Positions 41,442 through 62,839 of a DNA stretch of 64,000 nt are shown piece by piece. The notes under the pieces are model-generated. The model saw only the letters and a list, made by a program, of their open reading frames with translations. It did no database searches and had not been told where the DNA came from. Within the stretch, counting starts at the first letter, position 1, and every line of letters starts with the position of its first letter. Position numbers and translations under genes: made by a program. This DNA comes from a virus, in the UHGV virus genome UHGV-1519562. One strand, written 5' to 3'.

Positions 41442-42003
41442 AGTGTTGTAGCTCAGTAGGTTAGAGCCAGCGACTTATTTACGTTGATAATTAATATGAA
41501 AGAATTAACAGTTAAAAGAAAAGGTATTCTTACAGAAGAAAGATTAAAATTGTGGTTTTTGTTACAAGGATATTCTGTAAGTGTACCTATCGGAGATAAT
41601 GACAGGTATGATTTTATCGTAGATTTTGATGGTAAATTGATTAAAATGCAAAGTAAAACAAGTAATTTAACTAGAACAGTAGATTGCCTTAATTTTGCAT
41701 GTGCTTCAACTAAATATAATAGTACAGGTTCACATAGAACTAAATATACAAAAGATGATATTGATTATTTTTGTACTATTCATCCTGAAACAAATCAAGT
41801 TTATATTGTACCTGTTGATATTTGCGGAAATGAATGTAATTTAAGATTTGCCGCTCCAAAAAATAATAATTATAATGGAGTAAAAATGGCAAAAGATTAT
41901 GAAGGTGAAAAAATGATTGAAAGGATTTTAAATTCCTAATTAGTTAATTAGGAAAACGTAAATAAATCGCTAGACGTGGGTTCAAATCCCAACAGCACTA
42001 CCA
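41442..42003 (+). tRNA. tRNA gene interrupted in the anticodon loop by a 0.48-kb ORF-bearing insertion (anticodon ambiguous)
   Basis: 5' part 41442-41473: acceptor AGTGTTG, U8, D-arm GCTC/AGTAGGTTA/GAGC, anticodon stem AGCGA; 3' part 41967-42003: TCGCT, T-arm GTGGG/TTCAAAT/CCCAA, acceptor CAGCACT, A, CCA; flanking 9-nt inverted repeats extend the anticodon stem. Confidence 0.6.
41496..41939 (+). CDS. PD-(D/E)xK-like nuclease encoded inside the split tRNA
   Basis: motif RYDFIVDFDGKLIKMQSK similar to the small nuclease at 5034-5390 (RFDFAV...IEYQGKQH); ORF fills almost the entire insertion. Confidence 0.55.
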   Translation: MKELTVKRKGILTEERLKLWFLLQGYSVSVPIGDNDRYDFIVDFDGKLIKMQSKTSNLTRTVDCLNFACASTKYNSTGSHRTKYTKDDIDYFCTIHPETNQVYIVPVDICGNECNLRFAAPKNNNYNGVKMAKDYEGEKMIERILNS

Positions 42004-42233
42004 CTAATAATTTAAATATAATAAAAGTTTGATGTATACAAATGTTGCGTCATTTGAATCCCTCCCTTTGCTACAATCAACATTTGATTTACATTTGGAA
42101 AGAGTGATAGAAAATCACACAGAATTACTTTTAGCCAACCGAGTATCAATGTTATTAACTAAACTTTTTTACTTTTATATTAACATTTAAATTATATCTT
42201 TTAGTTTGCGGTCTAAATTGTAAAACCGCATAT

Positions 42234-42311
42234 GGCACTGTAGCCCAATTGGAAGCAGGCAGTAGACTTAAAATCTATTCAGTGTGGGTTCGAGTCCCAT
42301 CAGTGCTACCA
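42234..42311 (+). tRNA. tRNA, anticodon UAA, class I (short variable loop) - atypical for Leu
   Basis: acceptor GGCACTG/CAGTGCT, anticodon stem GTAGA/TCTAT, loop CTTAAAA, T-arm GTGGG/TTCGAGT/CCCAT, CCA encoded; D-arm irregular. Confidence 0.55.
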
Positions 42312-42458
42312 TCACAGATTGTTGTGCGATTTAACTGTGTTAAATAAATTAAAATCGCGTTGCACAGTTCTTCCTTTAAGGAGTAGTTATGTTATATAAC
42401 GAATGAACTAAAAAATTAATATTATGTTAAAATTGTATTAATTATTAAAAATTTTTGG

Positions 42459-42487
42459 TTGACTTTAATTAATAAATATGTTATAAT
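42459..42487 (+). promoter_or_regulatory. promoter for tRNA-Leu(UAG) (TTGACT N17 TG-TATAAT)
   Basis: TTGACT 42459-42464, TG 42479-42480, TATAAT 42482-42487. Confidence 0.55.
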
Positions 42488-42523
42488 ATTTATATAAGAT
42501 TAACCAAAGAAATGTTGGATTGA

Positions 42524-42605
42524 TGGAATGGTAGACATAGTAGCCTTAGAAGCTACCGCGTAAGCGTAAGAGTTCAAGTCTCTTATCCAACACCATTAGA
42601 CAGAC
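42524..42605 (+). tRNA. tRNA-Leu (anticodon UAG), class II
   Basis: acceptor GTTGGAT/ATCCAAC, anticodon stem GTAGC/GCTAC, loop CTTAGAA, long variable arm, T-arm AAGAG/TTCAAGT/CTCTT, CCA. Confidence 0.75.
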
Positions 42606-42720
42606 ACAGCAATCTTTATACAAGTAACGACATGCGGGTTCGATTCCTGTCTTTACGCATCTGTAAAGTAGCCTATTGGTAAGGTATTTATTTTGTTTAA
42701 AGCTGTCTAGTAAATCTCAA
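42606..42720 (+). ncRNA. tRNA-like element with permuted (Y-RNA/YrlA-like) topology
   Basis: order: stem strand AGACAG (42609-42614), T-arm GCGGG/TTCGATT/CCTGT (42644-42660), acceptor 3' strand CTTTACG, 4-nt loop, acceptor 5' strand TGTAAAG, UA, D-arm GCCT/ATTGGTA/AGGT, closing strand CTGTCT (42713-42718). Confidence 0.4.
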
Positions 42721-42852
42721 TTTGAAAAATAAAAAAAATTATGATATAATATTTATAGAAAGTTGAGGTTGATTTAATGTTTTACTGGGATTCCTTTGAT
42801 TGTGAAATTCAGTCTGATGAAATTGGTAGTATTACTAATCAGGAGAATGAAT

Positions 42853-43014
42853 ATGAAGAAACAGAAGAACAAGAATTTATGGGCGAAAAAGAGTGGCGAT
42901 GAACTTCAAGAGTATTTACAATTTCGCCGCAGAGGTAGTAAAGTAAAACCTAAAAAGGGCAAAGGTTCCTTTAAAAGAAAAAAAGAAATTTGGATCCATA
43001 GCGTAATTGGTTAG
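42853..43014 (+). CDS. small very basic protein (hypothetical); 3' end overlaps tRNA-Asn
   Basis: ATG 42853 after AGGAG; K/R-rich 53-aa product; overlap with the tRNA makes coding status uncertain. Confidence 0.3.
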   Translation: MKKQKNKNLWAKKSGDELQEYLQFRRRGSKVKPKKGKGSFKRKKEIWIHSVIG

Positions 43015-43058
43015 CGCAACGGACTGTTAATCCGTGGGTTGTTCGTTCAAGTCGAACT
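42982..43058 (+). tRNA. tRNA-Asn (anticodon GUU)
   Basis: acceptor GGATCCA/TGGATCC, D-arm GCGT/AATTGGTTA/GCGC, anticodon stem ACGGA/TCCGT, loop CTGTTAA, T-arm GTTCG/TTCAAGT/CGAAC, G, CCA. Confidence 0.85.
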
Positions 43059-43081
43059 GGATCCGCCATATATTTTAATTA

Positions 43082-43157
43082 GCTCCTATCGACAAGTTGG
43101 TTAAGTCATTAGCCCTTCAAGCTAGAGTCGCGGGATCGTAGCCCGCTAGGAGTACCA
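43082..43157 (+). tRNA. tRNA-like, anticodon UUC (Glu) with atypical T-loop and C33
   Basis: acceptor GCTCCTA/TAGGAGT, anticodon stem TTAGC/GCTAG, loop CCTTCAA, T-arm GCGGG/ATCGTAG/CCCGC, A, CCA. Confidence 0.45.
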
Positions 43158-43243
43158 TAATGAAAGACACATACAGCAATTTATTTAACATTATGAAAAA
43201 ATGGCAGAAAATTTTTATATAGGTGTCTTGTTTATATATTGCA

Positions 43244-43294
43244 GGCAGGTTAAAGCCCTGTGCGTCGCTGGTTCAAATCCAGCCTGTGATACCA
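43244..43294 (+). pseudogene. 3' two-thirds of a tRNA (anticodon arm, T-arm, acceptor 3' strand, CCA) without a cognate 5' part
   Basis: anticodon stem GCAGG/CCTGT, T-arm GCTGG/TTCAAAT/CCAGC, CTGTGAT-A-CCA; no D-arm or complementary acceptor strand within 60 nt upstream. Confidence 0.4.
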
Positions 43295-43295
43295 T

Positions 43296-43368
43296 TGCGG
43301 AGTAGAGAAACGGTTATCTCGCAACCCTCATAAGGTTGAGAAAGGTGGTTCGACTCCACCCTCTCGCA
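43296..43368 (+). tRNA. tRNA-like, anticodon CAU (Met/Ile2-type), acceptor stem poorly paired
   Basis: D-arm GAGA/AACGGTTA/TCTC, anticodon stem CAACC/GGTTG, loop CTCATAA, T-arm GGTGG/TTCGACT/CCACC; acceptor strands mostly non-complementary. Confidence 0.4.
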
Positions 43369-43490
43369 GAGACATAATCAACCACCTCCACGCGGTATGT
43401 CTTGGGTAAAGCGAACGGTTGAATGATTTTGGGTACATTTGGATAATTTAGTAGCCAAAAAAACTCCATAATATAATGGAGGGATGTATA

Positions 43491-43952
43491 ATGAGTTATA
43501 TTTATAGAATTATTAATAATATAAACGATAAGGTTTATATTGGAAAAACTGCTTTTGATATTTCAAAACGATTCAAAGAGCATTGTAATGATGCTTTTAA
43601 GAAAACAGAAGAAAAAAGACCATTATATGCGACAATGCGTAAATATGGGATAGAGCATTTTACAATAGAACAAATTGAAGAGTGCTCTGACGCTGCGGCC
43701 GCAGACAGAGAAGCCTATTGGATTAGTATGTATTCTGCTTATGAAAAAGGATATAATGCGACTCTTGGTGGCGATGGTAAATTTTTATATGACCACAAAG
43801 CAATTGCTTTGCGACTTCAAGAACATCCATATTCTCAAGATGTAGCAAAGAAGTTTGGATGTTGTGTTGATACAGTAAGAAATATTGCTAATCAATATGG
43901 TATTTCATTATTAGTCAATAATGGCCATAAAAAAAACTATTTCTGCTTATAG
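43491..43952 (+). CDS. GIY-YIG homing endonuclease (catalytic domain plus first DNA-binding module)
   Basis: YIYRIINNINDKVYIGKT...RFKEH...YN.TLGG GIY-YIG signature; ATG 43491 after GGAGGG. Confidence 0.8.
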   Translation: MSYIYRIINNINDKVYIGKTAFDISKRFKEHCNDAFKKTEEKRPLYATMRKYGIEHFTIEQIEECSDAAAADREAYWISMYSAYEKGYNATLGGDGKFLYDHKAIALRLQEHPYSQDVAKKFGCCVDTVRNIANQYGISLLVNNGHKKNYFCL

Positions 43953-44124
43953 TAAAAGCGGTGTTTTAATAAAAACTTTTGAATCTACCTCAGAAGCAGC
44001 TCAGTGGTGTTATGATAATCAAAAATGTGCCACTTTGCACTCTGGTGTTAGAAGCCATATAGCACAATGTGCTAATGGGATTCGTAAATCTGCATATAGT
44101 TATATATGGAAATATGAAAATTAA
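43921..44124 (+). CDS. C-terminal DNA-binding module of the GIY-YIG endonuclease, in a different frame
   Basis: ...IAQCANGIRKSAYSYIWKYEN resembles the C-terminal module of Seg/I-TevI-like endonucleases; frame changes at an A8 run around 43926-43933. Confidence 0.55.
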   Translation: MAIKKTISAYSKSGVLIKTFESTSEAAQWCYDNQKCATLHSGVRSHIAQCANGIRKSAYSYIWKYEN

Positions 44125-44157
44125 AAATATAGACTCATACAGCAAAAATTCTTTAAT

Positions 44158-44230
44158 TCTAAAATAGTCAAAAGGTTAAGACATCACTCTTGAAAAAGTG
44201 AAAATATGGGTTCGATTCCCATTTCTAGGT
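44158..44230 (+). tRNA. tRNA-like with 8-nt anticodon loop CTTGAAAA
   Basis: acceptor TCTAAAA/TTCTAGG (one A-C mismatch), D-arm GTC/AAAAGGTTAA/GAC, anticodon stem TCACT/AGTGA, T-arm ATGGG/TTCGATT/CCCAT; flanked by TAGACTC (44121) / GAGTCTA (44237). Confidence 0.4.
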
Positions 44231-44446
44231 TTAAAAGAGTCTAGTTAAAAATTAAATATAGAAAGGAGAGTTGCTTTATGGATTTGGATGATATGATTTT
44301 TTCTGATGAAGTAATTATTATTAGTGATAGATAATTATTTCTAATTTATATGGAAATGTACTCAATGTTGGCAAAGAGGACGATTTGCTAAATCGTTAGG
44401 TCTATGAGAATAGGCGAGTGGGGTCGGCACCCACCGTTTCCGCCAA

Positions 44447-44517
44447 GAGAATGTGGTGTAATCTGGTAACACGCTAACTTTGGGAGCTAGAGTCGCAGTT
44501 CAAATCTGACATTTTCT
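44447..44517 (+). tRNA. degenerate tRNA-like (anticodon UGG-like), weak T-stem
   Basis: acceptor GAGAATG/CATTTTC, D-arm GTGT/AATCTGGTA/ACAC, loop TTTGGGA; T-stem only 3 bp. Confidence 0.3.
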
Positions 44518-44760
44518 ACCATTTAGACACATACAGCAATTTTATAATACTGATATTATAATTTGTGGCTCGCTGTGGCCCTATTAACAGCTCCATTTAA
44601 TGAAAAAGTATGTCAATGATTTATATTATCTTTTGCGAAAATTTCTTTAATATAATGAGACTTACAAGAAATTTTTTGTGTCTAGTTTTTCTTATTTTAT
44701 CCTTTCTTTCTTCTTTATAAGATGCTTTCAGCAATAATTATTACAAATATATTTTATTAG

Positions 44761-44856
44761 GTTTATTAAAATAGTATATATTATAGCAAATATATTTCTA
44801 TAAAGTTTATTAAAATACTATATAGTAAATATATTTCTATAAGGTTTATTAATAGC
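44761..44856. repeat. AT-rich tandem repeat (about 2.5 copies of an about 40-bp unit) upstream of tRNA-Gln
   Basis: GTTTATTAAAATA(G/C)TATATA..AG.AAATATATTTCTATAA repeated from 44761 and 44805, partial copy from 44844. Confidence 0.6.
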
Positions 44857-44866
44857 ATCTTGATAT

Positions 44867-44942
44867 AGCGGCATAGTCAAGTGGTTAAGACATACGGCTT
44901 TGACCCGTATATCCGTTGGTTCAAATCCAACTGCCGCTGCCA
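44867..44942 (+). tRNA. tRNA-Gln (anticodon UUG)
   Basis: acceptor AGCGGCA/TGCCGCT, anticodon stem TACGG/CCGTA, loop CTTTGAC, T-arm GTTGG/TTCAAAT/CCAAC, G, CCA. Confidence 0.8.
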
Positions 44943-44989
44943 CTTAGCTATTTTAAGTAGCTTACTTTTAAAACTCCCCCTTTCTGAAA

Positions 44990-45024
44990 AATACCTCAAG
45001 TTTTAAACTTGAGGTATTTTTTTA
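44990..45024 (+). terminator. intrinsic terminator after the first tRNA block
   Basis: ATACCTCAAG TTTTAA ACTTGAGGTAT hairpin plus T7 run. Confidence 0.7.
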
Positions 45025-45177
45025 TGCAGAAAACAGGCCGGCGCGGGCACGGGCAAATTAAAATGGAGTTTAGTAATTTTTTTCTTGGTCAAAGATATTT
45101 TAAGAATTTACTTAAATTTTAAAAAAAATAGAAGGGATAAATTTAAACTAAACTTTTAAAAGAAAGGAGTAATTTAA

Positions 45178-45447
45178 ATGATTACTATAGATAGTAAATT
45201 TAATTTAGGTGGAAAAGCTTATGGAACTATTAGACTTCTTTGTGATACAAAAGCTGATATACCTAATTTAGATAATTATAAGAATTACGCCACAGGAAGT
45301 GAAGCTTTAGTTATCTCTACCTCAGAAAGATATATGTTAAATAGTTCAAAAGAATGGATTTTACAAAAAAATTCTGGCGGAAGTGGTGGCGGAGATTCAC
45401 CTTCACCTGACAATACTTACATATATGATGGTGGAGAAGTAACTTAA
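45178..45447 (+). CDS. hypothetical protein (Gly/Ser-rich C-terminus)
   Basis: 89-aa ORF with AAAGGAG RBS at the start of the tail-fibre block. Confidence 0.5.
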   Translation: MITIDSKFNLGGKAYGTIRLLCDTKADIPNLDNYKNYATGSEALVISTSERYMLNSSKEWILQKNSGGSGGGDSPSPDNTYIYDGGEVT

Positions 45448-52087: not shown

Positions 52088-52152
52088 AAGACTTATACAG
52101 CAAATAAAGCTTAAAAGCACTTGACTGGTAATCAAGAAGAAAAATGAGTCTT
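52088..52152 (+). repeat. conserved spacer hairpin (AGACNNATACAGCAA family)
   Basis: AAGACTT ATACAGCAA ... AGTCTT; related copies at 42607, 43166, 44119, 44519, 52806, 53030. Confidence 0.5.
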
Positions 52153-52166: not shown

Positions 52167-52252
52167 GTGGGCGTGATGAAACAGGAAAACATATCGCACT
52201 TAAAATGCGCTGCTAATCTAGCTTGTGGGTTCGAGTCCCATCGCCCACACCA
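52167..52252 (+). tRNA. tRNA-Leu (anticodon UAA), class II
   Basis: acceptor GTGGGCG/CGCCCAC, loop CTTAAAA, variable arm hairpin GCTA/ATC/TAGC, T-arm GTGGG/TTCGAGT/CCCAT, A, CCA; D-arm atypical. Confidence 0.6.
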
Positions 52253-52317
52253 TCTTTAAAACTGATACTCTTTACTATTAGTTTTGAAGATAACAATGAA
52301 CTTGAGTTTACTAATAT

Positions 52318-52394
52318 GCATCTGTAACTCAACTGGATAGAGTAACTGCCTTCTAAGCAGTAAGCCAGGGGTTCGAGTCCCTTCAGGCGTACCA
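52318..52394 (+). tRNA. tRNA-Arg (anticodon UCU)
   Basis: D-arm ACTC/AACTGGATA/GAGT, anticodon stem ACTGC/GCAGT, loop CTTCTAA, T-arm AGGGG/TTCGAGT/CCCTT, acceptor CAGGCGT-A-CCA (one A-C mismatch). Confidence 0.75.
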
Positions 52395-52579
52395 AGCAGA
52401 ATTATAATAGATAACAAAAGGAAATAGCTGATGTGAAAGGCATCTTGTCTTGCTGACATGACAATAAACTTTGAACGGACGTATAATGCGTATCGTGCCT
52501 GCGGGTGTAGAGTCAGAAAAGTAGGGGAATAATCGAGGAGCAGCTATAGGTGAGGCCCCACCTCCACCTTCCTTAATAT

Positions 52580-52668
52580 GGGGCAATGGCAGAGTTTGGC
52601 TTATTGTACTCGTCTTGAAAACGAGCAAACTAGCAATAGTTTCACTGGTTCAAATCCAGTTTGCCCCG
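52580..52668 (+). tRNA. tRNA-Ser (anticodon UGA), class II
   Basis: acceptor GGGGCAA/TTGCCCC, anticodon stem CTCGT/ACGAG, loop CTTGAAA, 18-nt variable arm, T-arm ACTGG/TTCAAAT/CCAGT; no encoded CCA. Confidence 0.75.
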
Positions 52669-52729
52669 CGGTATCAAGATAGTTACCTTCACGTGGTGAT
52701 ACTGTTTTTACTAAAACTATCAACTATTT

Positions 52730-52803
52730 GTAGATATAGTTTAATGATAGAATTCTGGACTTCCACTCCAGCGATGCGGGTTTGATTCCCGTTATCTACT
52801 CCA
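52730..52803 (+). tRNA. tRNA-Gly (anticodon UCC)
   Basis: acceptor GTAGATA/TATCTAC, anticodon stem CTGGA/TCCAG, loop CTTCCAC, T-arm GCGGG/TTTGATT/CCCGT, T, CCA. Confidence 0.75.
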
Positions 52804-52805
52804 TA

Positions 52806-52858
52806 AAGATACTCACAGCAATTTATTTTTTATAATGGGTATAAAAAAATAAAGTATC
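52806..52858 (+). repeat. conserved spacer hairpin (AGACNNATACAGCAA family)
   Basis: AAGATACT CACAGCAATTTATTTTTTATAATGGG... AGTATCTT; contains a TATAAT box that may serve the downstream tRNA-Thr. Confidence 0.5.
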
Positions 52859-52866
52859 TTGTATTT

Positions 52867-52942
52867 GCTAGTGTAGCACAATAGGTAGTGCAGCGGCCTT
52901 GTAAACCGCAGGTTAAGAGTTCAAGTCTCTTCGCTAGCTCCA
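52867..52942 (+). tRNA. tRNA-Thr (anticodon UGU)
   Basis: acceptor GCTAGTG/CGCTAGC, D-arm GCAC/AATAGGTA/GTGC, loop CTTGTAA, T-arm AAGAG/TTCAAGT/CTCTT, T, CCA. Confidence 0.8.
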
Positions 52943-52944
52943 AT

Positions 52945-53020
52945 GGTTCGCTAGTTCATTAGGTAGAACACTTGCCTTTTAAGCAAGATGTGCTGGGTTC
53001 AAATCCCAGGCGAGCCACCA
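52945..53020 (+). tRNA. tRNA-Lys (anticodon UUU)
   Basis: acceptor GGTTCGC/GCGAGCC, D-arm GTTC/ATTAGGTA/GAAC, anticodon stem CTTGC/GCAAG, loop CTTTTAA, T-arm CTGGG/TTCAAAT/CCCAG, A, CCA. Confidence 0.85.
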
Positions 53021-53395
53021 TTAGTCTTATCATACAGACGTAAAATAAATGAGTACCCCAGATAATGCTGAACTGGGTATCCGGGTATCGGGAGAATTAG
53101 TCTGGTAACTGTTGAAGCGACGATACTGCGTGACCAGGCATAAGGGCGACCTAAGTCGTTAGCTATGGGTAAACAGGTTGATAGCCGCATAGTAAAATGT
53201 TTCCTTGCGTCATTAAAATGCAAAGCGTTATAGGAGAGATGGCGGAGCATTACTCATCTCCACTCCTTCTACTACGAGAAGTAGAAAATCAAGGCTTCTG
53301 AGAAATGCTAATGAGAATGGTCAACCTCTGATTAAAAAAGGACTAAAGCTAGCTTGGGTTTTAGGTTATCCTCCTTACGAGGGAAAACCTTATTT
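53021..53395 (+). other. 375-nt non-coding, hairpin-rich region between tRNA-Lys and tRNA-Leu(CAA) (candidate structured RNA)
   Basis: no ORF longer than about 20 codons on the plus strand; GC-rich stems (CCCCAGATAATGCTGAACTGGG, GAGATGGCGGAGCATTACTCATCTC) and a GGTTATCCTCCTTA element; begins with the spacer motif variant AGTCTTATCATACAGACG. Confidence 0.35.
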
Positions 53396-53479
53396 GCCAG
53401 AATGTTGGAATTGGTAGACAAAGAAGCCTCAAAAACTTCCGCTTTATGCGTGCGGGTTCGAGTCCCGCTTCTGGTACCA
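53396..53479 (+). tRNA. tRNA-Leu (anticodon CAA), class II
   Basis: acceptor GCCAGAA/TTCTGGT, loop CTCAAAA, 12-nt variable arm, T-arm GCGGG/TTCGAGT/CCCGC, A, CCA. Confidence 0.65.
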
Positions 53480-53534: not shown

Positions 53535-55058
53535 ATGGAAAATAAGATGCTTAATATTTTGAAGGAAAAGAATACTCATTCTATCACTGAGAATAGCGGT
53601 TTGACTTATAATTCTACGATGAATGGAATTATGGATTTGTTTGCTCTTGGTGGCGCTTATCGAAATCGCTCAGATGATGATTGTATTTTTCTTTTTAAAA
53701 AGGCTTTTGAGGAAGATATTTCTTATGCCTTGAAGTGTCTCTTTTATTTGCGAGATGTACGTGGTGGACAGGGAGAACGCAGATTTTTTAAGGTTGTAAC
53801 TTCTTGGTTGGCAGTTAATCATATCGAGGAAATGCGTAGAAATCTGAAGTATATTCCTGAGTATGGTCGCTGGGATGATTTGTATGCTTTTGTTGATACT
53901 CCGCTTGAGGCAGATGCTTTTAAGACTATGTATCATCAGCTTGCTCTTGATGTTCAGTGTAAAACTCCTTCTCTTTTGGCTAAGTGGTTGAAGTCTGAAA
54001 ATACTTCTTCTGCGGAATCTCGTATGCTTGGAACTAAAACCAGAATGGCCTTTAATATGTCTCCTAAGCAGTATCGCAAAACTCTCTCTATTCTTCGTGA
54101 AAGAATTAGAGTTTTGGAAAGATTGATGAGTGAAAATCGTTGGGATGAAATTGAATTTGATAAGATTCCTTCTAAGGCAGGTCTAAAGTATCGCAATGCT
54201 TTCGCAAAGCACGATATTGAAAGAGAAAAGTCTAATAAGGTAACTTATGAAGAGTTTGTAAAGGATTCTAATACTAAGGTCAATGCTGATACTCTGAATC
54301 CCGCAGATGTAGTTCATGCTGTTATGTCTAAATTTCCTTATTATAGAGGAAATTTTAATGGAACCGATGTAGAGAGAGCTGCACTCAATAAGTATTGGGA
54401 TAATCTAAAGGATTATTTTAATAATGCTGTTTTTGACGGTGTTGCTGTCGTTGATACTTCTGGTTCTATGTGTGGTTTTTATGGTAGTGAGAAAACTATT
54501 GCACCTATTGATGTAGCTATTTCTCTTGGTATGTATTGTGCTGAGAAGTGTAATCCCAATTCTCCCTGGTATGGACATTATATTACTTTTTCTCGAACTG
54601 CAAGATTGGTGCCTGTTGAAGGTATTGATTTTGTTGATAAGGTGCGTCGAATTTATCAAAAGAATCTTTGTGAGAATACCGACATTAAAAGTATTTTTGA
54701 TTTGCTATTGAGTAATGCTATTAAATATAATATTCCTAATGAAGAAATGCCTAAAAACATTGTAATCATTAGTGATATGGAATTTGATTATTGCGCTGGT
54801 TATTATAATAGTGATGAATATAGATCTGAAATGGAAAAGATTATGCAGGTTTGGAACTCTCATGGTTACACTACTCCGCATTTGATTTTCTGGAATGTTG
54901 ACGCTCGAAATGATAATATTCCCATGAAGATGAAAGATGGTATTACTTTTATTTCTGGCTACTCTGCGGTAACTTATGAAATGTTGATGACTGGTAAAAC
55001 TGGTTTTGATTTGGTTTTGGAAAAGTTGAATAGCAAGAGATATGAAGTAATCAAGTAA
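53535..55058 (+). CDS. vWA (MIDAS) domain protein, DUF2828-like; possible Ro60/Rsr-like RNA-binding protein
   Basis: 507 aa; MIDAS-like VAVVDTSGSM in the C-terminal half after a roughly 300-aa mainly helical N-terminal region (architecture of TROVE plus vWA proteins); family assignment is from memory. Confidence 0.5.
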   Translation: MENKMLNILKEKNTHSITENSGLTYNSTMNGIMDLFALGGAYRNRSDDDCIFLFKKAFEEDISYALKCLFYLRDVRGGQGERRFFKVVTSWLAVNHIEEMRRNLKYIPEYGRWDDLYAFVDTPLEADAFKTMYHQLALDVQCKTPSLLAKWLKSENTSSAESRMLGTKTRMAFNMSPKQYRKTLSILRERIRVLERLMSENRWDEIEFDKIPSKAGLKYRNAFAKHDIEREKSNKVTYEEFVKDSNTKVNADTLNPADVVHAVMSKFPYYRGNFNGTDVERAALNKYWDNLKDYFNNAVFDGVAVVDTSGSMCGFYGSEKTIAPIDVAISLGMYCAEKCNPNSPWYGHYITFSRTARLVPVEGIDFVDKVRRIYQKNLCENTDIKSIFDLLLSNAIKYNIPNEEMPKNIVIISDMEFDYCAGYYNSDEYRSEMEKIMQVWNSHGYTTPHLIFWNVDARNDNIPMKMKDGITFISGYSAVTYEMLMTGKTGFDLVLEKLNSKRYEVIK

Positions 55059-56598: not shown

Positions 56599-57495
56599 AT
56601 GAATAATTATCAAAATTTATATAATATTATTAAAACTATTTATATCCAAAAGCAAGAAGAAAAATCTACCAATTATCATTCTTATATCGAAATTCAAACA
56701 AGAGTAATGGAGCATTACCAAGAAGCTTTAAAAATTTTTCCTAAAGAAAATATTCTTGGTATTTTTTATCAAGGCGCCGCGAATTATGGTCTTGATACTG
56801 TAAATTCTGATGTTGATACTAAATGTCTTATTATTCCTACTATTGAAGATTTGGCTTTTAATAAAAAACCAGTAAGTTATACTCATGTTTTAAATAATAA
56901 TGAACACATTGATTTTAAAGATGTGCGGCTTTATATGAATGAGTTCCGCAAACAGAATATTAATTTTTTAGAAATTTTATACACTGATTATTGTTATGTA
57001 AATCCAAAATATCAATCTTTTTGGAATAAATTAATTTCTAAAAGAGATGAAATTGCTCATTATGATGAATTTAGAGCTTTAAATAGTATGCTTGGTATAA
57101 TGCAAAATGAGATTAATCGCATGTTTAAACCAACAGAGAGTCGAAAAGAAGTTGTAGAAAAATTTGGCTATGACCCAAAATGTTTTAGTCATTTAAATAG
57201 ACTTAGATTATTTTATAGTTGTTACTTGAATGATTCTTATTCTATTTGTTTAAAGTGTTATGATAGTTTTTGGAGAGAAAGATTAATCTTTTATAAAAAT
57301 GGATATGAAGATTTAAGTTTTGTAAAAATTTTTGTTGAAGATCAGCAAGAATGGGTAAAAAACCAGTATGAACGATTAAGTAATGAAAGAAAAAATTATT
57401 CTATCAATATAGAAATTTCTAATTACATGGATGAAGTATTATTAAATATTATTGAAAATTATTTGTGTTCATATTTTCAACCTACTGCTTTTTAA
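56599..57495 (+). CDS. nucleotidyltransferase (pol-beta superfamily NTase fold)
   Basis: GIFYQGAANYGLDTVNSDVDTK fits the hG[GS]x(9-13)Dh[DE]h NTase signature. Confidence 0.6.
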   Translation: MNNYQNLYNIIKTIYIQKQEEKSTNYHSYIEIQTRVMEHYQEALKIFPKENILGIFYQGAANYGLDTVNSDVDTKCLIIPTIEDLAFNKKPVSYTHVLNNNEHIDFKDVRLYMNEFRKQNINFLEILYTDYCYVNPKYQSFWNKLISKRDEIAHYDEFRALNSMLGIMQNEINRMFKPTESRKEVVEKFGYDPKCFSHLNRLRLFYSCYLNDSYSICLKCYDSFWRERLIFYKNGYEDLSFVKIFVEDQQEWVKNQYERLSNERKNYSINIEISNYMDEVLLNIIENYLCSYFQPTAF

Positions 57496-57507
57496 GGAGG
57501 AATTCTA

Positions 57508-58254
57508 GTGAAACAGTATTTTATCACTGGGGATACGCACGGTAAAAATTATCAACGTATTTGTCAAATGATTGAACAATATTCTTGCTCTCCTAAAAAT
57601 TCTTCTCTTATTATTCTTGGAGACGCAGGATTTAATTTTTGGTTAGATAAAAAAGAGCAAAAGTGGAAGAAAAGAGTAAATGATTTAGGATATTCGATTT
57701 ATTGTGTGCGGGGAAACCATGAAGAGCATCCTAAAAATTTACCTAATATTCAAGAAATTTGGGATGCAGAAATTCAAGGTTGGATTTATATTCAACCAGA
57801 TTTTCCTAACCTTAAATATTTGATTGACGGAAATACTTACTACTTTAATAGTCATTCTGCTATTGTTCTTGGTGGTGCTTATTCGGTTGATAAACATTAT
57901 AGATTAATGCAGGCTACTTTGAATCGTACCGATGATTGGACTGGTTGGTTTCCTGATGAACAATTAACACAGCAAGAGATGTTAGATATTAACAATAAAG
58001 TGATTAATCATCATTATGATTTAGTTCTATCTCATACTTGTCCTTTTGATTGGCGTCCTACTGCTTTATTTCTTCCTGGAATTGATCAATCTACTATTGA
58101 TAATACTATGGAAATTTGGATGAATGATTTAAAAGATAAGTTTTCTTGGAATAATTGGTTCTGGGGACACTTTCACGCAAATACAGATTACTATGATGGT
58201 AGATATATGTTATTTGAAAATATTTATAATTTAGAGGATTTAATTAATGATTGA
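57508..58254 (+). CDS. calcineurin-like metallophosphoesterase
   Basis: GDTHGK, GDAGFN, GNHEEH, WGHFH metal-binding motifs. Confidence 0.7.
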   Translation: MKQYFITGDTHGKNYQRICQMIEQYSCSPKNSSLIILGDAGFNFWLDKKEQKWKKRVNDLGYSIYCVRGNHEEHPKNLPNIQEIWDAEIQGWIYIQPDFPNLKYLIDGNTYYFNSHSAIVLGGAYSVDKHYRLMQATLNRTDDWTGWFPDEQLTQQEMLDINNKVINHHYDLVLSHTCPFDWRPTALFLPGIDQSTIDNTMEIWMNDLKDKFSWNNWFWGHFHANTDYYDGRYMLFENIYNLEDLIND

Positions 58255-58576
58255 TGGCGTTACAGTTTTAAAACAATATGATTTTACTTTGGACGCAAAT
58301 TTAATTATTATTCTTAGTATTTTAACTGGTATATTGTTTTTCTTTTTAGTTAAAATGCTTTGGTTTGATATGAAACCTGAAGGAAATTTAATACCTCTTA
58401 TATGGGGAGTAACGATTGGTTTATTAGCTGCTTTTTATTTAAAATCTGATGATTCTTCTCCTTGTCGTTATGATGTTATTATAGATGATTCTGTTTCAGT
58501 TAATGAATTATATAAAGATTATGAAATATTAAAAGTAGAAGGAAAAATTTATACAATTACTTTAAGGGAGAAATAA
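58247..58576 (+). CDS. small membrane protein
   Basis: two hydrophobic helices; overlaps previous stop. Confidence 0.5.
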   Translation: MIDGVTVLKQYDFTLDANLIIILSILTGILFFFLVKMLWFDMKPEGNLIPLIWGVTIGLLAAFYLKSDDSSPCRYDVIIDDSVSVNELYKDYEILKVEGKIYTITLREK

Positions 58577-58578
58577 TA

Positions 58579-59097
58579 ATGACTAATAAATATGAAGCAC
58601 GAATTTTCCCCAATGGACGTATCGCGTTTTATAAAAGCAAAGATTTAGAAGATGCCATCAAAGCTGATAAAGAATTGTTGATTGTATGTAATTGTCATAC
58701 TGGTGGAAGCACTTTAGCTATGGGCGCCCACAAAATGCCCGATCGGAATAATCCTGATGAAACTATCACATTTTTATACAACTCAAGCATCAGCCGTCAA
58801 GTATTTACAGGAGAAGAAATGAATCGTTTTTATAAGGTTATTTTTACTCCTGGCGAAAGGATTTTTGATAATAACTCTGACTATGCTACACGATATGACT
58901 ATGGCCACCATTGTTTCTATAATGGCAGCAAAAAAATGAAAGTAAATGAGGAAATGACTGCGCGTTATCTCAATAAAGAACAAGTAAAAGCAATGATTGG
59001 AATTGGTGTTTTTACTGAAAAGGCATTGGATTACTGTATTGAAGCAATAAGTAATAAAAATGCTATCGAAGATTCTGTAAACGAATGTTCTAGTTAA
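58579..59097 (+). CDS. hypothetical protein
   Basis: 172-aa ORF with GGGAG RBS. Confidence 0.55.
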   Translation: MTNKYEARIFPNGRIAFYKSKDLEDAIKADKELLIVCNCHTGGSTLAMGAHKMPDRNNPDETITFLYNSSISRQVFTGEEMNRFYKVIFTPGERIFDNNSDYATRYDYGHHCFYNGSKKMKVNEEMTARYLNKEQVKAMIGIGVFTEKALDYCIEAISNKNAIEDSVNECSS

Positions 59098-59229
59098 AAA
59101 GAAATTTATTTTAAATTTAAGGACAAAACTTTTAAAAGTTTTGTCATTAATTTATTTTTTTAAAAAAATATTATATAATATATATAGAAAGTTAAGGAAT
59201 AAATAAATAAGAAAGAGGTTGAAATTTTT

Positions 59230-59499
59230 ATGATTTATAGAAAAAGCAAATATAGTAAAGATCAGACTGCAATTTGGCAAGGTGAAACCGCGGTTATTCT
59301 TGCCCAATCAGCAGAAGCTATGACAATAGATGAAATTAAAAAGAATAGTATTCAATTAACAGGTGTTTCTACTCAAAAAATGGCTAGGATTCTTGGGCAT
59401 TTAATTGAAATGGGTATGGTAACAAAAGCAAAAAGCAAAAGTGGTAAAATGGTCTATAAATCTTTAGCAGTTATGGAAGCACAAGGCTATGAAATTTAA
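59230..59499 (+). CDS. small winged-helix-like protein (same family as 36614 ORF)
   Basis: MTIDEIKKN...TGVSTQKMARILGHLIEMGMVTKAKSKSGKMVYK. Confidence 0.5.
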   Translation: MIYRKSKYSKDQTAIWQGETAVILAQSAEAMTIDEIKKNSIQLTGVSTQKMARILGHLIEMGMVTKAKSKSGKMVYKSLAVMEAQGYEI

Positions 59500-59509
59500 A
59501 TAAAGGAGT

Positions 59510-60787
59510 TTGATATTTATGGCATACTATGGTTTAGTAACTAAAATTGAGAATGTAAGAAAAGACCCTAATTCTGATAGACTCTATTTAGCTGACTGTT
59601 TTAGAGAAGGAGTTATTGTAGGCCCTGATATAAAGGAAGGTGAGTTAGTTCTTTATCTTCCTACTGATGGAGCTATTGAGCGTTGGTTTGGTGATGAGTT
59701 TAAGCTTTTCCGCAAGAATTTAGATGGCACCGCACAAGGTGGTTATTTGGAAAATAATGCTCATATTAGAGCAATTAAGCTGAGAGGTAATGAATCTTCT
59801 GGTATTGTTATTTCTTATTCTGCTATTGTTGAGCATTTTGGTGAGCAAAATTGGAAAGACGGCGATCAAGTAACTGAAATTAATAATAAACTGTTTTGTT
59901 ATAAATATATTCCTAGACCTTCGGCTACTCCTCGCACTACTCCTAAGACTTCTTATAAAGGTCGTAAAGCAGCTGGAATTAAGTATCCTGATTTTGCTAT
60001 GCACATTGATACTGCTCAATTAGCTTACAATCTTGGAATCTTTAGACCTGGAGATAAAATTAATCTAACCCTTAAAATGCATGGAACTAGCCAGCGTAGT
60101 GCATATACTTGGGCAGAATATCCTATGTCTTGGTTTAGAAAACTATTTCATATGAAGCCTAAGAGAAAGTTACAGTATGTTTTAGGTACTCGTAGAACTG
60201 TTGTTACTACTGATGGGGCAGGTTATTATGGTAATGACAAATTTAGATTTAGTCATCATGAAGCTTTAAAACCTTATCTTGATGAAGGTATGGAGGTTTT
60301 TTATGAAGTAGTTGGTTGGTATGGAGCAAAAGAAAATGAAACTATTATGCCAATTGTAGATAATAGTAAAATTAATGACAAGAAATTTATGAAAAAGTTT
60401 GGTAAGTATACTACTTTTTCTTATGGTTGTACTCCTGGTCATTCTGCGATGTGGATTTATAGAATTACTTCTCACAATGGAGAGTATGAATATTCTCCAG
60501 AGGAAATTACTACTTGGTGTAATGAATATGGTTTTAATCGTGTTCCTATCATTGAGGATTTTGAATTTACTACTGTTGATGACTTGCTCGCTAAAATTGA
60601 CAAATATTTTGAAGATATTGTTGATCCAGTTGGTTTAACTCATGTTAAAGAAGGTGTAGTGGTTAGAATCGCTAATAGATGTACTTTTACTGCATTAAAA
60701 CAAAAAACCTGGGAGTTTAAAGTCCTTGAAGGTCTAGTTAAAGATACTGAAACCCAGCCCGATATGGAAGAAGCACAGGAGATTTAA
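59510..60787 (+). CDS. ATP-dependent RNA ligase (Rnl2-like nucleotidyltransferase motifs)
   Basis: motif I KMHGTS (compare T4 Rnl2 KIHGTN), motif IV HVKEGVVVR, motif V LKQKTWEFK. Confidence 0.65.
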   Translation: MIFMAYYGLVTKIENVRKDPNSDRLYLADCFREGVIVGPDIKEGELVLYLPTDGAIERWFGDEFKLFRKNLDGTAQGGYLENNAHIRAIKLRGNESSGIVISYSAIVEHFGEQNWKDGDQVTEINNKLFCYKYIPRPSATPRTTPKTSYKGRKAAGIKYPDFAMHIDTAQLAYNLGIFRPGDKINLTLKMHGTSQRSAYTWAEYPMSWFRKLFHMKPKRKLQYVLGTRRTVVTTDGAGYYGNDKFRFSHHEALKPYLDEGMEVFYEVVGWYGAKENETIMPIVDNSKINDKKFMKKFGKYTTFSYGCTPGHSAMWIYRITSHNGEYEYSPEEITTWCNEYGFNRVPIIEDFEFTTVDDLLAKIDKYFEDIVDPVGLTHVKEGVVVRIANRCTFTALKQKTWEFKVLEGLVKDTETQPDMEEAQEI

Positions 60788-60789
60788 AT

Positions 60790-61239
60790 ATGACTTTAGA
60801 AATTATGCACAATGACATGATGCAGGCTTTGAAGAATGGTGATACTCAAAAGAAGAATGTACTTTCCAATATGATTGGTGAAGTACAAAAAGCAGCAATT
60901 ACACCAAAAGGCAGAATTGAAATTACCGAAGAGCTTGTTAATAATACTTTAATCAAGTATCAAAAGATGATTCAAGAAATGATTGATACTTGTCCAGAAA
61001 ATCGCGAAGAGTTATTTATTCAATATAATCTTGATATGGCTGTTGTAAAGCAGTATGCACCACAACTTCTTACTGACAAAGAAGCAATTAAAACTCAAAT
61101 TGAAAAGATGCTTGCAGAAAATAAGCTCGATGCAATTAAGGCAAATAAAGGCAGAGCAATGAAACTTTTTGCTCCTGTTTTTAAAGGTAAAGCAGATATG
61201 AAAATTGTTAATCAAATTGTATCGGAGGTAATGACCTAA
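60790..61239 (+). CDS. GatB/YqeY-domain protein
   Basis: 149 aa; helical protein with ...KANKGRAMKLFAPVFKGKADMKIVNQIV... resembling the YqeY/GatB C-terminal domain. Confidence 0.5.
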   Translation: MTLEIMHNDMMQALKNGDTQKKNVLSNMIGEVQKAAITPKGRIEITEELVNNTLIKYQKMIQEMIDTCPENREELFIQYNLDMAVVKQYAPQLLTDKEAIKTQIEKMLAENKLDAIKANKGRAMKLFAPVFKGKADMKIVNQIVSEVMT

Positions 61240-61240
61240 T

Positions 61241-61420
61241 ATGTTTTATTTAATAATGACGATTATTTGGGGTATCTTAATGTGTGTTAATGGAGTTTTG
61301 CTATGCGAAACAATTTTACATAATAGATGTCAAGAAAAGAAAATGCGTATTTTCTGGTTCCTCTTTTGCGTATTTTGGTTTATTTTTGAAATCTTGCGGC
61401 TCGGAGGCTTTATTCTTTGA
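61241..61420 (+). CDS. small membrane protein (59 aa)
   Basis: ATG 61241 after GGAGG; highly hydrophobic; below track cutoff. Confidence 0.4.
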   Translation: MFYLIMTIIWGILMCVNGVLLCETILHNRCQEKKMRIFWFLFCVFWFIFEILRLGGFIL

Positions 61421-61635
61421 AAATTGTAATTGATAAAAAAGATTTTATGGAATATATTCGTGCTATGGTAGATAAGGATTTTGACAATTTTATGTTTGCA
61501 AATCCTTACGCGACAGAAGAAGATTATATTAATTTATATTATTCTTTTGATACAATTCATAATTTAGATGATATTTGTGAAGAAGAATATTGTAGAAGAA
61601 TTATTAATGGTGAAATAGAAGAAATTGAAGATTGA
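61417..61635 (+). CDS. hypothetical acidic protein
   Basis: 72-aa ORF, TTG start overlapping previous stop (TTGA), GGAGG 8 nt upstream. Confidence 0.4.
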   Translation: MKIVIDKKDFMEYIRAMVDKDFDNFMFANPYATEEDYINLYYSFDTIHNLDDICEEEYCRRIINGEIEEIED

Positions 61636-61735
61636 AAGAATTAAGGGCAAAGATTAAGATCTTTTGCCCTTAATTTATTTTTTTAAAAATTTATATTATA
61701 ATATATATAGAAAGTTAAGAAAGGAATTGATATTT

Positions 61736-61903
61736 ATGAATAAGGGTAAAGTTTATTGTTTTACTGACCTTCATGGCGATTCAAATTTGTTTAAGCAAAT
61801 TAAAAATTTCATTCAAGCAGAAGATAAAGTATTCGTGTTGGGTGATGTAATTGACAGAGGGACAGAAGGTTGTCAAAGCCTTTCTCTACACGAAAATATT
61901 TAA
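61736..61903 (+). pseudogene. truncated metallophosphoesterase (N-terminal fragment only)
   Basis: 56-aa product with TDLHGD and GDVIDRG motifs, then stop; downstream frame lacks the expected GNH motif. Confidence 0.4.
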
Positions 61904-62065
61904 CAGACAATAATATACGTATTATTTTTACAAATTATGTAGAAATGTTAAAATATAAAATTTGGAAAAAGACAGAAATTAAAAAAATAAATACAGAAAA
62001 AGAAAGAAAAGAACTTAAAGAATATTTTGAAATTGTAAAAAAACAAATTGAGGAGTTTGATAAAA

Positions 62066-62837: not shown

Positions 62838-62839
62838 TA

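Follow-up and report, generated by a model that had tools for sequence, protein, structure and literature searches.

The four atypical tRNA elements between positions 42234 and 44230 of the window analysed here, a 64,000-nt stretch of the viral genome UHGV-1519562, are in our judgement probably four separate specialities of a single RNA-maintenance island, rather than one phenomenon or the products of gene decay. The original prediction had singled out a tRNA with the leucine anticodon UAA and a short variable loop (42234-42311), a tRNA with a non-canonical T loop (43082-43157), a tRNA with an unpaired acceptor (43296-43368) and an element with an 8-nt anticodon loop (44158-44230). ARAGORN drawings and Rfam alignments confirmed each of these structural oddities, and neither program replaced them by canonical structures with other anticodons. 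The same prediction had grouped the elements as decoys, modified-identity tRNAs or pseudogenes. Such a shared interpretation fails because each element has a different explanation, and each belongs to, or varies on, a known kind: a tRNA-Leu, a Y RNA, a variant phage tRNA, and a tRNA followed by a candidate theta ribozyme. The notion of a decoy or mimic comes close to our reading of 44158-44230, whereas none of the three labels fits the tRNA-Leu, and the tRNA-Glu and the tRNA(CAU) are conserved variants and not genes in decay. The real remnants of tRNA genes sit elsewhere, at 43244-43294 and in a split gene at 41442-42003. Automatic labels such as 'tRNA-Leu', 'tRNA-???' and 'tRNA-Met' hide four biologically different objects. 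The most unusual findings are an expanded-loop, non-permuted tRNA mimic in a Y-RNA-like family linked to DUF2828 proteins, and endonuclease-only inserts in tRNA anticodon loops.

The window has a G+C content of about 30% and is part of an AT-rich phage of about 138 kb, probably with a gut Firmicutes host, the host being deduced from an encoded S8 peptidase with an SLH domain and a SleB-type hydrolase. The IMG/VR contig 3300045988_145614 (137,669 nt; L125 below) is 94-98% identical to the window, and a blastn search of 41800-45200 against GenBank phages returned no related genome but only tRNA-sized matches. ARAGORN located 16 tRNA genes in two clusters, 42234-44942 and 52167-53479, and 15 of them passed the gathering score of 29 bits of the Rfam tRNA model (RF00005). 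Among the flagged elements, the tRNA-Leu(UAA) and the tRNA(CAU) have a 7-nt anticodon loop with U33, whereas 44158-44230 has an 8-nt loop and the tRNA-Glu has C33. CCA is encoded in 42234-42311 and the tRNA-Glu and is absent from the tRNA(CAU) and 44158-44230. An alternative genetic code is not indicated: the long open reading frames (ORFs) are normal under table 11, and none of the 29 counted stop codons is TAG. What was computed here are structures, conservation, covariation, genomic linkage and a protein fold; aminoacylation, binding by a Ro60-like protein, ribozyme activity and the role of the mimic are proposed from sequence, covariation, linkage and the predicted fold.

A tRNA-like domain in a family of Y-RNA-like elements

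ARAGORN labels the element at 44158-44230 as 'tRNA-?(Ser|Phe)(tgaa)'. Its perfect 5-bp anticodon stem (UCACU/AGUGA) closes the 8-nt loop CUUGAAAA, which is indeed one base longer than the CUUGAAA loop of the window's tRNA-Ser(UGA). The G+C content is 33%, and the acceptor contains an A.C mismatch and a U.G pair (U1.G72), followed by U73 without CCA. The domain lies within a 114-nt unit, 44130-44243, in which a basal stem (UAGACUC/GAGUCUA), the single-stranded AUACAGCAA, a short second stem and the cloverleaf follow each other. We read 44158-44230 as a tRNA mimic inside a Y-RNA-like RNA and not as a decoder. The likeness to frameshift-suppressor tRNAs, drawn in the original prediction, is the weaker reading in view of the Y-RNA-like enclosure, the unconserved acceptor and the missing CCA.

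Across the 114-nt unit, the window and L125 are 95% identical and differ at six positions. Four of these belong to two base pairs of the anticodon stem that have changed in a compensatory manner (one from C-G to U-A, the other from U-A to C-G), and the other two weaken the acceptor, which in L125 has two mismatches and two wobbles. The loop, the T arm, the D arm and the basal stem are the same in both. Because the changes are compensatory in the one part and weakening in the other, selection appears to keep the anticodon arm and its 8-nt loop rather than a chargeable acceptor. A second lineage of four contigs (L141, L143, L145 and L146) carries a different 8-nt loop, CUUGUUAA, in its embedded cloverleaves. 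A published loop catalogue assigns CUGUUAA to Asn, CUGAAAA to phage Phe and CUUGAAA to Ser(UGA) (PMC12482277); CUUGAAAA and CUUGUUAA each equal a canonical loop plus one base, the latter being the Asn loop with one additional U. A scan of IMG/VR with the pattern GGTTAAGACANNNNNCTYGAAA found true members only in contig L021 and in the window's own relative.

The enclosing structure belongs to a larger family. Six copies of the 15-nt motif AGACNCAUACAGCAA are present in the window, usually directly after a tRNA, and each has a complementary GNGUCU(A/U)G 50-160 nt downstream. The stems covary between copies (AGACAC/GUGUCU, AGACUC/GAGUCU, AGACAG/CUGUCU and AGAUACU/AGUAUCU). In elements collected by a motif scan of IMG/VR and from later loci, a 7-bp downstream partner was present for 96 of 151 matches to the motif WAGAYNNNYACAGCAA, as compared with 2 for a control word. 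The 86 unique elements comprised 38 short hairpins, 23 permuted YrlA-like forms with a T arm and no cloverleaf, 14 long forms and 11 that scored as cloverleaves, one of the last being an artefact that ran past its element. The embedded cloverleaves bear the loops CUCGAAA in L021, CUUGAAA in L048 and a 9-nt loop in L064, as well as canonical 7-nt loops resembling Gly-UCC in L044 and Asn-GUU in L028. The window's own permuted element, 42597-42709, is conserved in L125. Its minimum free energy (MFE) fold consists of a basal stem and three hairpins, and the Rfam YrlA model (RF02553) matches 42604-42711 over its full length. Paired ends, a T arm, a closed acceptor hairpin and a D arm follow each other as in YrlA. 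The other five window elements gave no match to the YrlA model, and the cloverleaf in 44130-44243 is non-permuted and departs from this layout.

Y RNAs with tRNA-like domains beside Ro60 genes are known in bacteria and phages (PMC4201824, PMC12135203), and the window encodes a candidate protein partner. The product of 53535-55058 matched PHROG 850, 'RNA-binding protein', at 6e-111. A fold search was needed because a sequence search of the PDB with this DUF2828 protein gave no match. The AlphaFold model (pLDDT 76) agrees with the ring of HEAT repeats plus von Willebrand A (vWA) domain of Ro60 and TROVE proteins: its top 11 Foldseek matches in the PDB were all Ro60, TROVE or Rsr proteins, including Ro60 of Thermus phage phiLo, Rsr of D. 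radiodurans, and Xenopus and human Ro60. The alignments were full-length, with E values of 2e-6 to 5e-3, albeit with low TM scores (0.29-0.41). Homologs of DUF2828 occur in 705 GenBank phage records, and those of mycobacteriophages are annotated as 'Ro-like RNA binding protein'. A literature search for DUF2828 returned only irrelevant plant and other papers. In a related 142-kb phage contig (L126), the DUF2828 gene is followed by one 93-aa ORF and then by a gene (11931-14372) for an 813-aa major-vault-protein-like protein with MVP_shoulder and faint Vault_3 domains, an arrangement that recalls the link between TROVE Ro proteins and vaults; no such gene was seen in the window.

The protein gene and the RNA element are linked in some of the loci. 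A DUF2828 homolog lay beside the motif in 21 of about 120 loci fetched with the motif. Conversely, when 80 loci were fetched with the protein (gene ± 3 kb), the strict motif was present in 14, and all 15 of its elements were upstream of the gene and on the same strand. A relaxed motif matched 45 times on the gene strand and 15 times on the other strand. In the window, the elements lie 0.7-11 kb from the Ro60-like gene. The product of 53535-55058 is the presumed partner of the Y-RNA-like elements. In the mechanism that we propose, 44158-44230 would be the tRNA-like module of a 114-nt transcript, whose basal stem and AUACAGCAA strand would presumably be bound by the Ro60-like protein. The module would display an anticodon arm whose loop is that of Ser(UGA) or Phe(GAA) enlarged by one base, and this mimic might serve as a tether or decoy presented to a factor that binds tRNAs.

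Several observations weigh against this reading. The YrlA match of 42597-42709 (24.9 bits) is far below the gathering score of 69, and the published Rsr-binding motif on the 5' strand of YrlA, GNCGAA(N0-1)G (PMC4201824), is absent from the elements, which have AYACAGCAA instead. Only the 14 of 80 DUF2828 loci mentioned above have the strict motif within 3 kb, and in the window 9-11 kb separate the Ro60-like gene from the first tRNA cluster. Few events underlie the covariation within the mimic, since the window and L125 are only about 5% apart. The MFE folds of 44130-44243 and 42597-42709 were no better than those of shuffled sequences (z = -1.1 and -1.7); such scores are uninformative in this AT-rich sequence.

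The stems AGACNC-AUACAGCAA...GNGUCU could instead be processing or insulation signals of polycistronic tRNA transcripts, such as RNase III or RNase E sites or terminator-like clamps, with the embedded cloverleaf an odd but ordinary tRNA precursor. That the elements abut the 3' ends of tRNA-Leu(UAG), tRNA-Glu, tRNA-Pro and tRNA-Gly, that some cloverleaves (L044, L028) have canonical 7-nt loops, and that the strict motif is missing near most DUF2828 genes would all suit such signals. We nevertheless consider this improbable, as a simple clamp has no need of the conserved single strand AUACAGCAA, the permuted module that defines YrlA cannot yield a tRNA in 23 of the 86 elements, and the elements adjoin DUF2828 genes in the same orientation. 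Still weaker is the case for a genuine +1 frameshift suppressor, which would be excised, tailed with CCA, charged and used by the ribosome to decode quadruplets. Its 8-nt loop and perfect stem are conserved with compensatory changes, 8-nt loops recur in the second lineage, the phage nucleotidyltransferase could add CCA, and YrlA of M. smegmatis is cut by RNase P and receives CCA (PMC4201824). However, the A/U-rich acceptor is weak and has deteriorated further in L125, in contrast to the preserved anticodon arm, U73 and U1.G72 fit no known identity set, elements without any tRNA are enclosed by this same conserved stem with its motif, and the listed long ORFs, which were not systematically examined, show no obvious need for frameshifting; a suppressor is thus very unlikely. 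A bolder proposal, which we regard as doubtful, combines two claims: that the mimics of Ro60-like particles are counter-defence baits and that the endonuclease-only tRNA inserts are a new intron class. As uncleavable or mis-registered baits, the CUUGAAAA and CUUGUUAA loops would then lure tRNA-targeting defence nucleases of the host or tRNA-modifying enzymes, and the 86-element family would be a counter-defence system rather than one of RNA quality control. The interpretation as a Y-RNA-like RNA with a tRNA mimic remains the one that we prefer, and mimic RNAs with defined anticodon-like loops make the function of the tRNA-like domain testable.

Leucine, glutamate and CAU tRNAs

According to ARAGORN, 42234-42311 is a 78-nt tRNA-Leu(taa). 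Its variable loop has 5 nt (UCAGU) and its D stem 3 bp, A73 is followed by an encoded CCA, and it lacks the long variable arm of class II tRNAs. It further has G1.U72, A14, A15:U48 and G18G19, and its sequence is identical in L125. Both statements of the original prediction on this point, the UAA anticodon with a 5-nt variable loop and the presence of a canonical class II tRNA-Leu(taa) (86 nt, 52167-52252), proved accurate. A blastn search matched the gene in 189 GenBank phage records, and the annotated features among the matches listed were all tRNA-Leu. The matched phages infect, among others, Streptomyces, Erwinia, Mycobacterium, Enterococcus, Pseudomonas, Vibrio, Shigella, Salmonella, Prochlorococcus, Lactobacillus and Bacillus. 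Four records that we opened contain genes of 74-78 nt that share one body and differ in their Leu anticodons. Mycobacteriophage Chaser has Leu(tag), Enterobacter phage phi63_307 both Leu(aag) and Leu(taa), Streptomyces phage Comrade Leu(caa), and cyanophage P-RSM6 a 74-nt tRNA-Leu. Among about 120 IMG/VR loci that had been fetched for another, unrelated purpose, 13 of 71 tRNA-Leu were 75-78 nt long, with the anticodons CAA, UAG, UAA, CAG and AAG.

An alignment of 17 members of the short-arm family (A3) gave a clean cloverleaf with compensatory changes in 18 of 20 pairs. A73, A14, A15 and G18 are invariant, the 15:48 pair is A:U, and G1.U72 occurs in 14 members. [quoted passage not shown] This identity set is complete in 42234-42311, albeit under rules established for E. 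coli LeuRS; the host of the phage, and hence its LeuRS, is not identified, which counts against a firm assignment. UUA is the commonest Leu codon in the window ORFs, at 46%. Instead of a decoy, a tRNA of modified identity or a pseudogene, 42234-42311 is very likely a working leucine tRNA of a widespread, covarying phage lineage. The lineage would have lost the long variable arm while keeping what bacterial LeuRS reads, and the window's copy would supplement UUA decoding. A literature search found no description of a phage class-I tRNA-Leu lineage, which does not disprove the existence of one. Septu cuts the variable loop of tRNA-Tyr (PMC13096335), and escape from defences that recognise class II arms may be one lead for the loss of the arm.

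The tRNA-Glu(UUC) has the non-canonical T loop that had been pointed out, AUCGUAG with A54 and U58, and additionally the anticodon loop CCUUCAA with C33. L125 has the same two loops and differs by a U.G to C-G change in the anticodon stem. Both variants recur in phage tRNAs: C33 was found in 11 of 547 tRNAs of the fetched phage loci, and A54/U58 in 14 of 463, as opposed to two cases each of A/A and U/U. As positions 54 and 58 change together, their tertiary pair can be kept. The tRNA-Glu is thus a conserved variant rather than a decaying gene, and probably a working tRNA, which would decode while carrying C33 and a swapped A54:U58 pair. Changes in the anticodon loops of phage tRNAs have been linked to escape from anticodon nucleases (PMC10264068), and by analogy C33 might serve the same end. 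Another recurrent non-canonical T loop, GUCGGCA (G54, G58), occurs in the window's tRNA-Ser(GCU) at 44352-44445 and in Ser, Tyr, Phe and 'Pyl' phage tRNAs.

In the tRNA(CAU) (43296/7-43368), the acceptor GCG-GAG/CUCUCGC contains one unpaired U, or two mismatches in the ARAGORN register, and both ARAGORN and Rfam bear out the unpaired acceptor. The gene lies in a block, window 43252-44126 (875 nt), that replaces 59 nt of L125 and has four parts: a truncated tRNA-Phe, the tRNA(CAU), a 54-nt ribozyme-like element and a GIY-YIG endonuclease gene, which L125 lacks. The tRNA-Phe remnant, which scores only 21 bits with the Rfam tRNA model, retains the 3' two-thirds of the tRNA, namely the anticodon arm (GAA changed to AAA), the T arm, the 3' strand of the acceptor, A and CCA; at the microhomology GCAGG it is fused to the initial 9 nt of the resident tRNA(CAU). 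The four contigs of the second lineage contain an intact tRNA-Phe(GAA), followed by a tRNA-Met that is identical to the window's gene, bulge included. Their tRNA-Met ends in ...CUCUCGCA-ACCA, while the window continues from ...CUCUCGCA with GAGACAUAAUCAACCACCUCCACGCGGUAUGUCUUGGGUAAAGCGAACGGUUGA.

This difference falls where a candidate minimal HDV-like (theta) ribozyme, 43369-43422, begins, and the start of the ribozyme at 43369 would explain the missing CCA. Its predicted helices, all with Watson-Crick pairing, are P1 (GAGACAU/AUGUCUU), P2 (UCAACC/GGUUGA), P3 (ACC/GGU) and P1.1 (GG), with J4/2 GCGAAC. The Rfam HDV-F-prausnitzii model matched in full with a reduced P4 (19.7 bits, E 0.066 on 131 nt), and our own descriptor matched once across both strands of the window (128 kb). 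Theta ribozymes, a minimal HDV-like type, have their G1 next to the 3' end of phage tRNAs in which an encoded CCA is rare, and they occur in gut phages enriched for tRNA nucleotidyltransferase and RNA ligase (PMC10879173). The element has G1 in a G.U pair, P1, P1.1, P2, P3, the C in J4/2, no P4 and a predicted cleavage site at the tRNA's 3' end; nucleotidyltransferase and RNA ligase are both encoded in the window. On the other side, 19.7 bits is below the Rfam gathering score of 44, and in one register of the tRNA(CAU) cleavage would leave no discriminator base. The tRNA(CAU) is probably a variant but working tRNA, which arrived in a GIY-YIG endonuclease cassette and whose 3' end would be made by the ribozyme, followed by enzymatic CCA addition. 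The GIY-YIG gene itself changes frame at an A8 run (ggccataaaaaaaac, 43921-43952), giving ORFs of 158 and 67 aa, which could mean a pseudogene, a sequencing slip or a programmed frameshift.

Two alternatives bear on these tRNAs. The atypical elements might be tRNA pseudogenes decaying through endonuclease traffic in the cluster, and real remnants, the truncated tRNA-Phe (43244-43294) and the split tRNA-Ile, do lie next door, with two or three homing endonuclease genes within 3 kb and a tRNA(CAU) that has lost the A-CCA encoded in other phages. Every flagged element is, however, conserved in independent contigs together with its oddity, the changes in the stems are compensatory and not random, and the Rfam scores reach 49-57 bits. 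We therefore hold decay to be quite unlikely, also for the tRNA(CAU), whose bulge is shared by four other phages. As for 42234-42311, it could be charged with an amino acid other than leucine or could serve as a decoy for LeuRS or a nuclease. The lack of a class II arm, the unusual but conserved G1.U72, and the apparent redundancy of the gene, given that a canonical class II tRNA-Leu(UAA) is also present, might be taken in favour of a changed role. Yet the family body bears only the Leu anticodons UAA, UAG, CAA, CAG and AAG, it retains A73, A15:U48 and G18G19, and E. coli LeuRS does not need the long arm, which makes a changed role extremely unlikely. Leucine decoding is what we expect of this gene. 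Class-I tRNA-Leu across unrelated phages offers a natural test of how LeuRS reads a tRNA without the long arm, and lets one ask whether arm loss protects against cutters of class II tRNAs such as Septu.

A split tRNA-Ile and the surroundings of the clusters

Upstream of the first cluster, a tRNA-Ile(UAU) gene, which is intact in L125, is split by an insert (41479-41964) of whose 486 nt an I-Ssp6803I-like endonuclease ORF fills 444. We found 75 clusters of homologs of this ORF and inspected 22 copies at 19 loci; a search of IMG/VR found no close relatives, and the examples came from ENA and Logan contigs. In 19 of the 22 copies the ORF lies inside a tRNA anticodon loop, with Ile(UAU), Ile(GAU) and Thr(UGU) as host genes, and an intron-less Thr allele exists in a sister contig. 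Loci with endonuclease-only inserts include L132, L136, L137, L139, L229 and L234-L236. One copy has a decayed 3' exon, and two sit in a bare 16-bp helix without a surrounding tRNA. Where the junctions are readable, the last three nucleotides of the insert complement the anticodon (UAU/AUA, GAU/AUC and UGU/ACA), its first nucleotides are base-paired with the subterminal ones and differ between copies in a compensatory way, and U33 pairs with A37. Since the 3' end of the insert, the anticodon and the 5' end of the insert pair in this way, both junctions fall within a single unbroken helix of about 10-11 bp, with an offset of 3 bp.

Three known insertion types do not fit this arrangement. A group I intron was rejected for lack of a terminal G (the last nucleotide is A or C) and of room for a ribozyme core, and the Intron_gpI model gave no match at E<=10 in the window or at E<=1 in four related loci. 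The helix is continuous and without bulges, unlike that of an archaeal bulge-helix-bulge intron, and a transposon with target-site duplication would leave an empty site one nucleotide short. Ambiguous placement of the junctions led ARAGORN to the spurious labels 'tRNA-Stop(tta)', 'Lys(ttt)' and 'Asp(gtc)'; the intron-less alleles fix the junction at 36/37. According to a 2014 review, the phage introns known by then all lay in genes for proteins, although phages have many tRNA genes (PMC3984707). The inserts may be mobile tRNA introns of a new kind, or insertions that have repeatedly killed the genes they entered. One possibility for splicing would be a cut by a protein endonuclease followed by the phage set of kinase, phosphatase and ligase; alternatively, the inserts may simply inactivate the tRNA. 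In view of the decayed copy and the helix-only copies, splicing should not be assumed. If this were a new intron class, it would be protein-spliced and helix-guided.

Together with the tRNAs, the end-healing and sealing genes that lie downstream of the Ro60-like gene make up an island for RNA repair and tRNA maintenance (Table 1). It would unite tRNAs, Y-RNA-like RNAs, the Ro60-like protein, a nucleotidyltransferase, an RNA ligase, a kinase-like protein and phosphoesterases, two or three of the last being found among the downstream RNA genes.

Table 1. Positions of the features described in the window.
Feature	Position	Strand	Evidence
Class-I tRNA-Leu(UAA), short variable loop	42234-42311	+	ARAGORN; Rfam tRNA 57.1 bits; phage-wide family
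tRNA-Glu(UUC), C33, swapped A54/U58, CCA encoded	43082-43157	+	ARAGORN; Rfam 49.1 bits
tRNA(CAU), one-nt bulge in acceptor 3' strand, no encoded CCA	43296-43368	+	Rfam 49.5 bits; identical in four phage contigs
tRNA-like domain, 8-nt anticodon loop CUUGAAAA, weak A/U acceptor, U73, no CCA	44158-44230	+	ARAGORN; Rfam 51.4 bits
Y-RNA-like element with embedded non-permuted cloverleaf, 114 nt	44130-44243	+	Motif, stems; conserved in L125
Y-RNA-like element, permuted tRNA-like domain (YrlA type), directly after tRNA-Leu(UAG)	42597-42709	+	Rfam YrlA 24.9 bits
Y-RNA-like element, short hairpin (AAGACAC AUACAGCAA ... GUGUCUU)	43164-43229	+	Motif and 7-bp partner
Y-RNA-like element, long form, directly after tRNA-Pro	44524-44684	+	Motif; 98% identical in L125
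Y-RNA-like element, short form, just downstream of a TGnTATAAT-type sequence	52088-52152	+	Motif
Y-RNA-like element, short form (AAGAUACU/AGUAUCUU), directly after tRNA-Gly	52806-52860	+	Motif
Candidate minimal HDV-like (theta) ribozyme	43369-43422	+	Rfam HDV-F-prausnitzii 19.7 bits; descriptor
GIY-YIG homing endonuclease gene, two overlapping ORFs (43476-43952 and 43921-44124)	43476-44124	+	Pfam GIY-YIG 1.8e-13
5'-truncated tRNA-Phe remnant	43244-43294	+	Comparison with intact tRNA-Phe(GAA) in L141, L143, L145 and L146, and with L125
tRNA-Ile(UAU) with a 486-nt insert (41479-41964) between nt 36 and 37	41442-42003	+	Intact L125 allele; ARAGORN -i
I-Ssp6803I-like PD-(D/E)XK endonuclease ORF in the insert	41496-41939	+	Pfam PDDEXK_5 2e-30; PDB 2OST 1e-7
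Ro60-like protein (DUF2828 + DUF7788/vWA)	53535-55058	+	Pfam; PHROG 850; AF2 and Foldseek
RNA end-healing/sealing genes	56599-63385	+	Pfam, PHROG
Nucleotidyltransferase	56599-57495	+	Pfam/PHROG
Metallophosphoesterase	57508-58254	+	Pfam/PHROG
RNA ligase	59510-60787	+	PHROG 968, 2e-47
Polynucleotide-kinase-like protein	62325-62837	+	Pfam/PHROG
Phosphoesterase	62840-63385	+	Pfam/PHROG

Further features were observed in and around the clusters. A stretch of about 160 nt with higher G+C (52418-52579), between tRNA-Arg and tRNA-Ser(UGA), is 82-86% identical in five contigs (L141, L143, L145, L146 and L147) whose DUF2828 proteins share only about 54% identity with that of the window. The stretch has a single variable hairpin insertion and gave no Rfam match at E<=1; it is likely a structured RNA of unknown kind. 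Between tRNA-Lys and tRNA-Leu(CAA), 377 nt (53020-53396) without a convincing ORF or an Rfam match, of which the first 173 nt are 87% identical in L141, are a possible large non-coding RNA. A GOLLD RNA lies beside the tRNA cluster of a related phage (L137). Related clusters (L102:1432-1509, L104:2618-2695, L058, L126, L141 and L143) contain suppressor-type tRNAs with CUA or UUA anticodons, two of which have the unusual loops AAUUAAC and AACUAAC without U33. A third gene of the homing-endonuclease type (7140-7988, minus strand; HNH_3, NUMOD1 and NUMOD4) is far from the tRNA clusters.

Relation to known systems

The short-arm tRNA-Leu shares with class II bacterial tRNA-Leu the Leu anticodons, A73, A14, A15:U48, G18G19 and the 3-bp D stem. 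Mitochondrial class-I tRNA-Leu(UUR) likewise lacks the long variable arm. The phage family is set apart from both by its 5-nt variable loop and conserved G1.U72, and was seen in phage sequence, which is what our scans covered.

The 54-nt nested double pseudoknot without P4 at 43369-43422 corresponds to theta ribozymes in its G1 abutting the 3' end of a tRNA, in the lack of an encoded CCA in that tRNA, and in its occurrence in a gut member of the Caudoviricetes with nucleotidyltransferase and RNA ligase. It differs in that the tRNA has a CAU anticodon and is not a suppressor, with no sign of stop-codon recoding (TAG at 0 of 29 stops), and in that it is known from sequence, with an Rfam score below threshold. 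The candidate would make the theta ribozyme a tRNA-processing device outside recoded phages as well. The cassette resembles the T4 situation, in which GIY-YIG endonucleases such as SegB move segments of the tRNA cluster (PMC2330249): homing endonuclease genes are located among or inside tRNA genes, and flanking tRNAs are co-converted. The insert in the tRNA-Ile has its counterpart in the I-Ssp6803I group I intron of the cyanobacterial tRNA-fMet, which also places a homologous PD-(D/E)XK enzyme in an anticodon loop. In contrast to that intron, the insert has neither room for nor a match to a group I ribozyme, and no terminal G.

Frameshift-suppressor tRNAs with 8-nt anticodon loops, of the sufD, sufA/B and sufJ types, have one extra nucleotide in an otherwise regular anticodon loop on a 5-bp stem, as does 44158-44230. 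Unlike them, this element lacks a sound acceptor, CCA and any recognisable identity set, forms part of a larger conserved RNA, and is natural in two lineages rather than a suppressor mutation.

The closest parallels to the enclosing elements are YrlA and Yrn1, to which Ro60 or Rsr binds. Common to all are a basal stem of paired ends with an adjacent conserved motif in the 5' strand, T and D arms in an internal tRNA-like module, and several copies per genome near a gene for a Ro60-type protein, with phage examples known; Yrn1 of D. radiodurans even has an 'anticodon arm' with a 5-bp stem and a 6-nt loop. The differences from YrlA are the motif (AYACAGCAA here, GNCGAA there), the DUF2828/DUF7788 protein, which is Ro60-like by fold and by the annotation of distant homologs only, and the complete non-permuted cloverleaf with an 8-nt loop in 44130-44243, where YrlA has a closed acceptor hairpin and no anticodon arm. 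Because motif, protein type and cloverleaf differ, we describe the elements as working like Y RNAs and do not claim membership of YrlA. Seen in this light, the family would extend the Ro60 and Y-RNA biology of phages to the large DUF2828 protein family.

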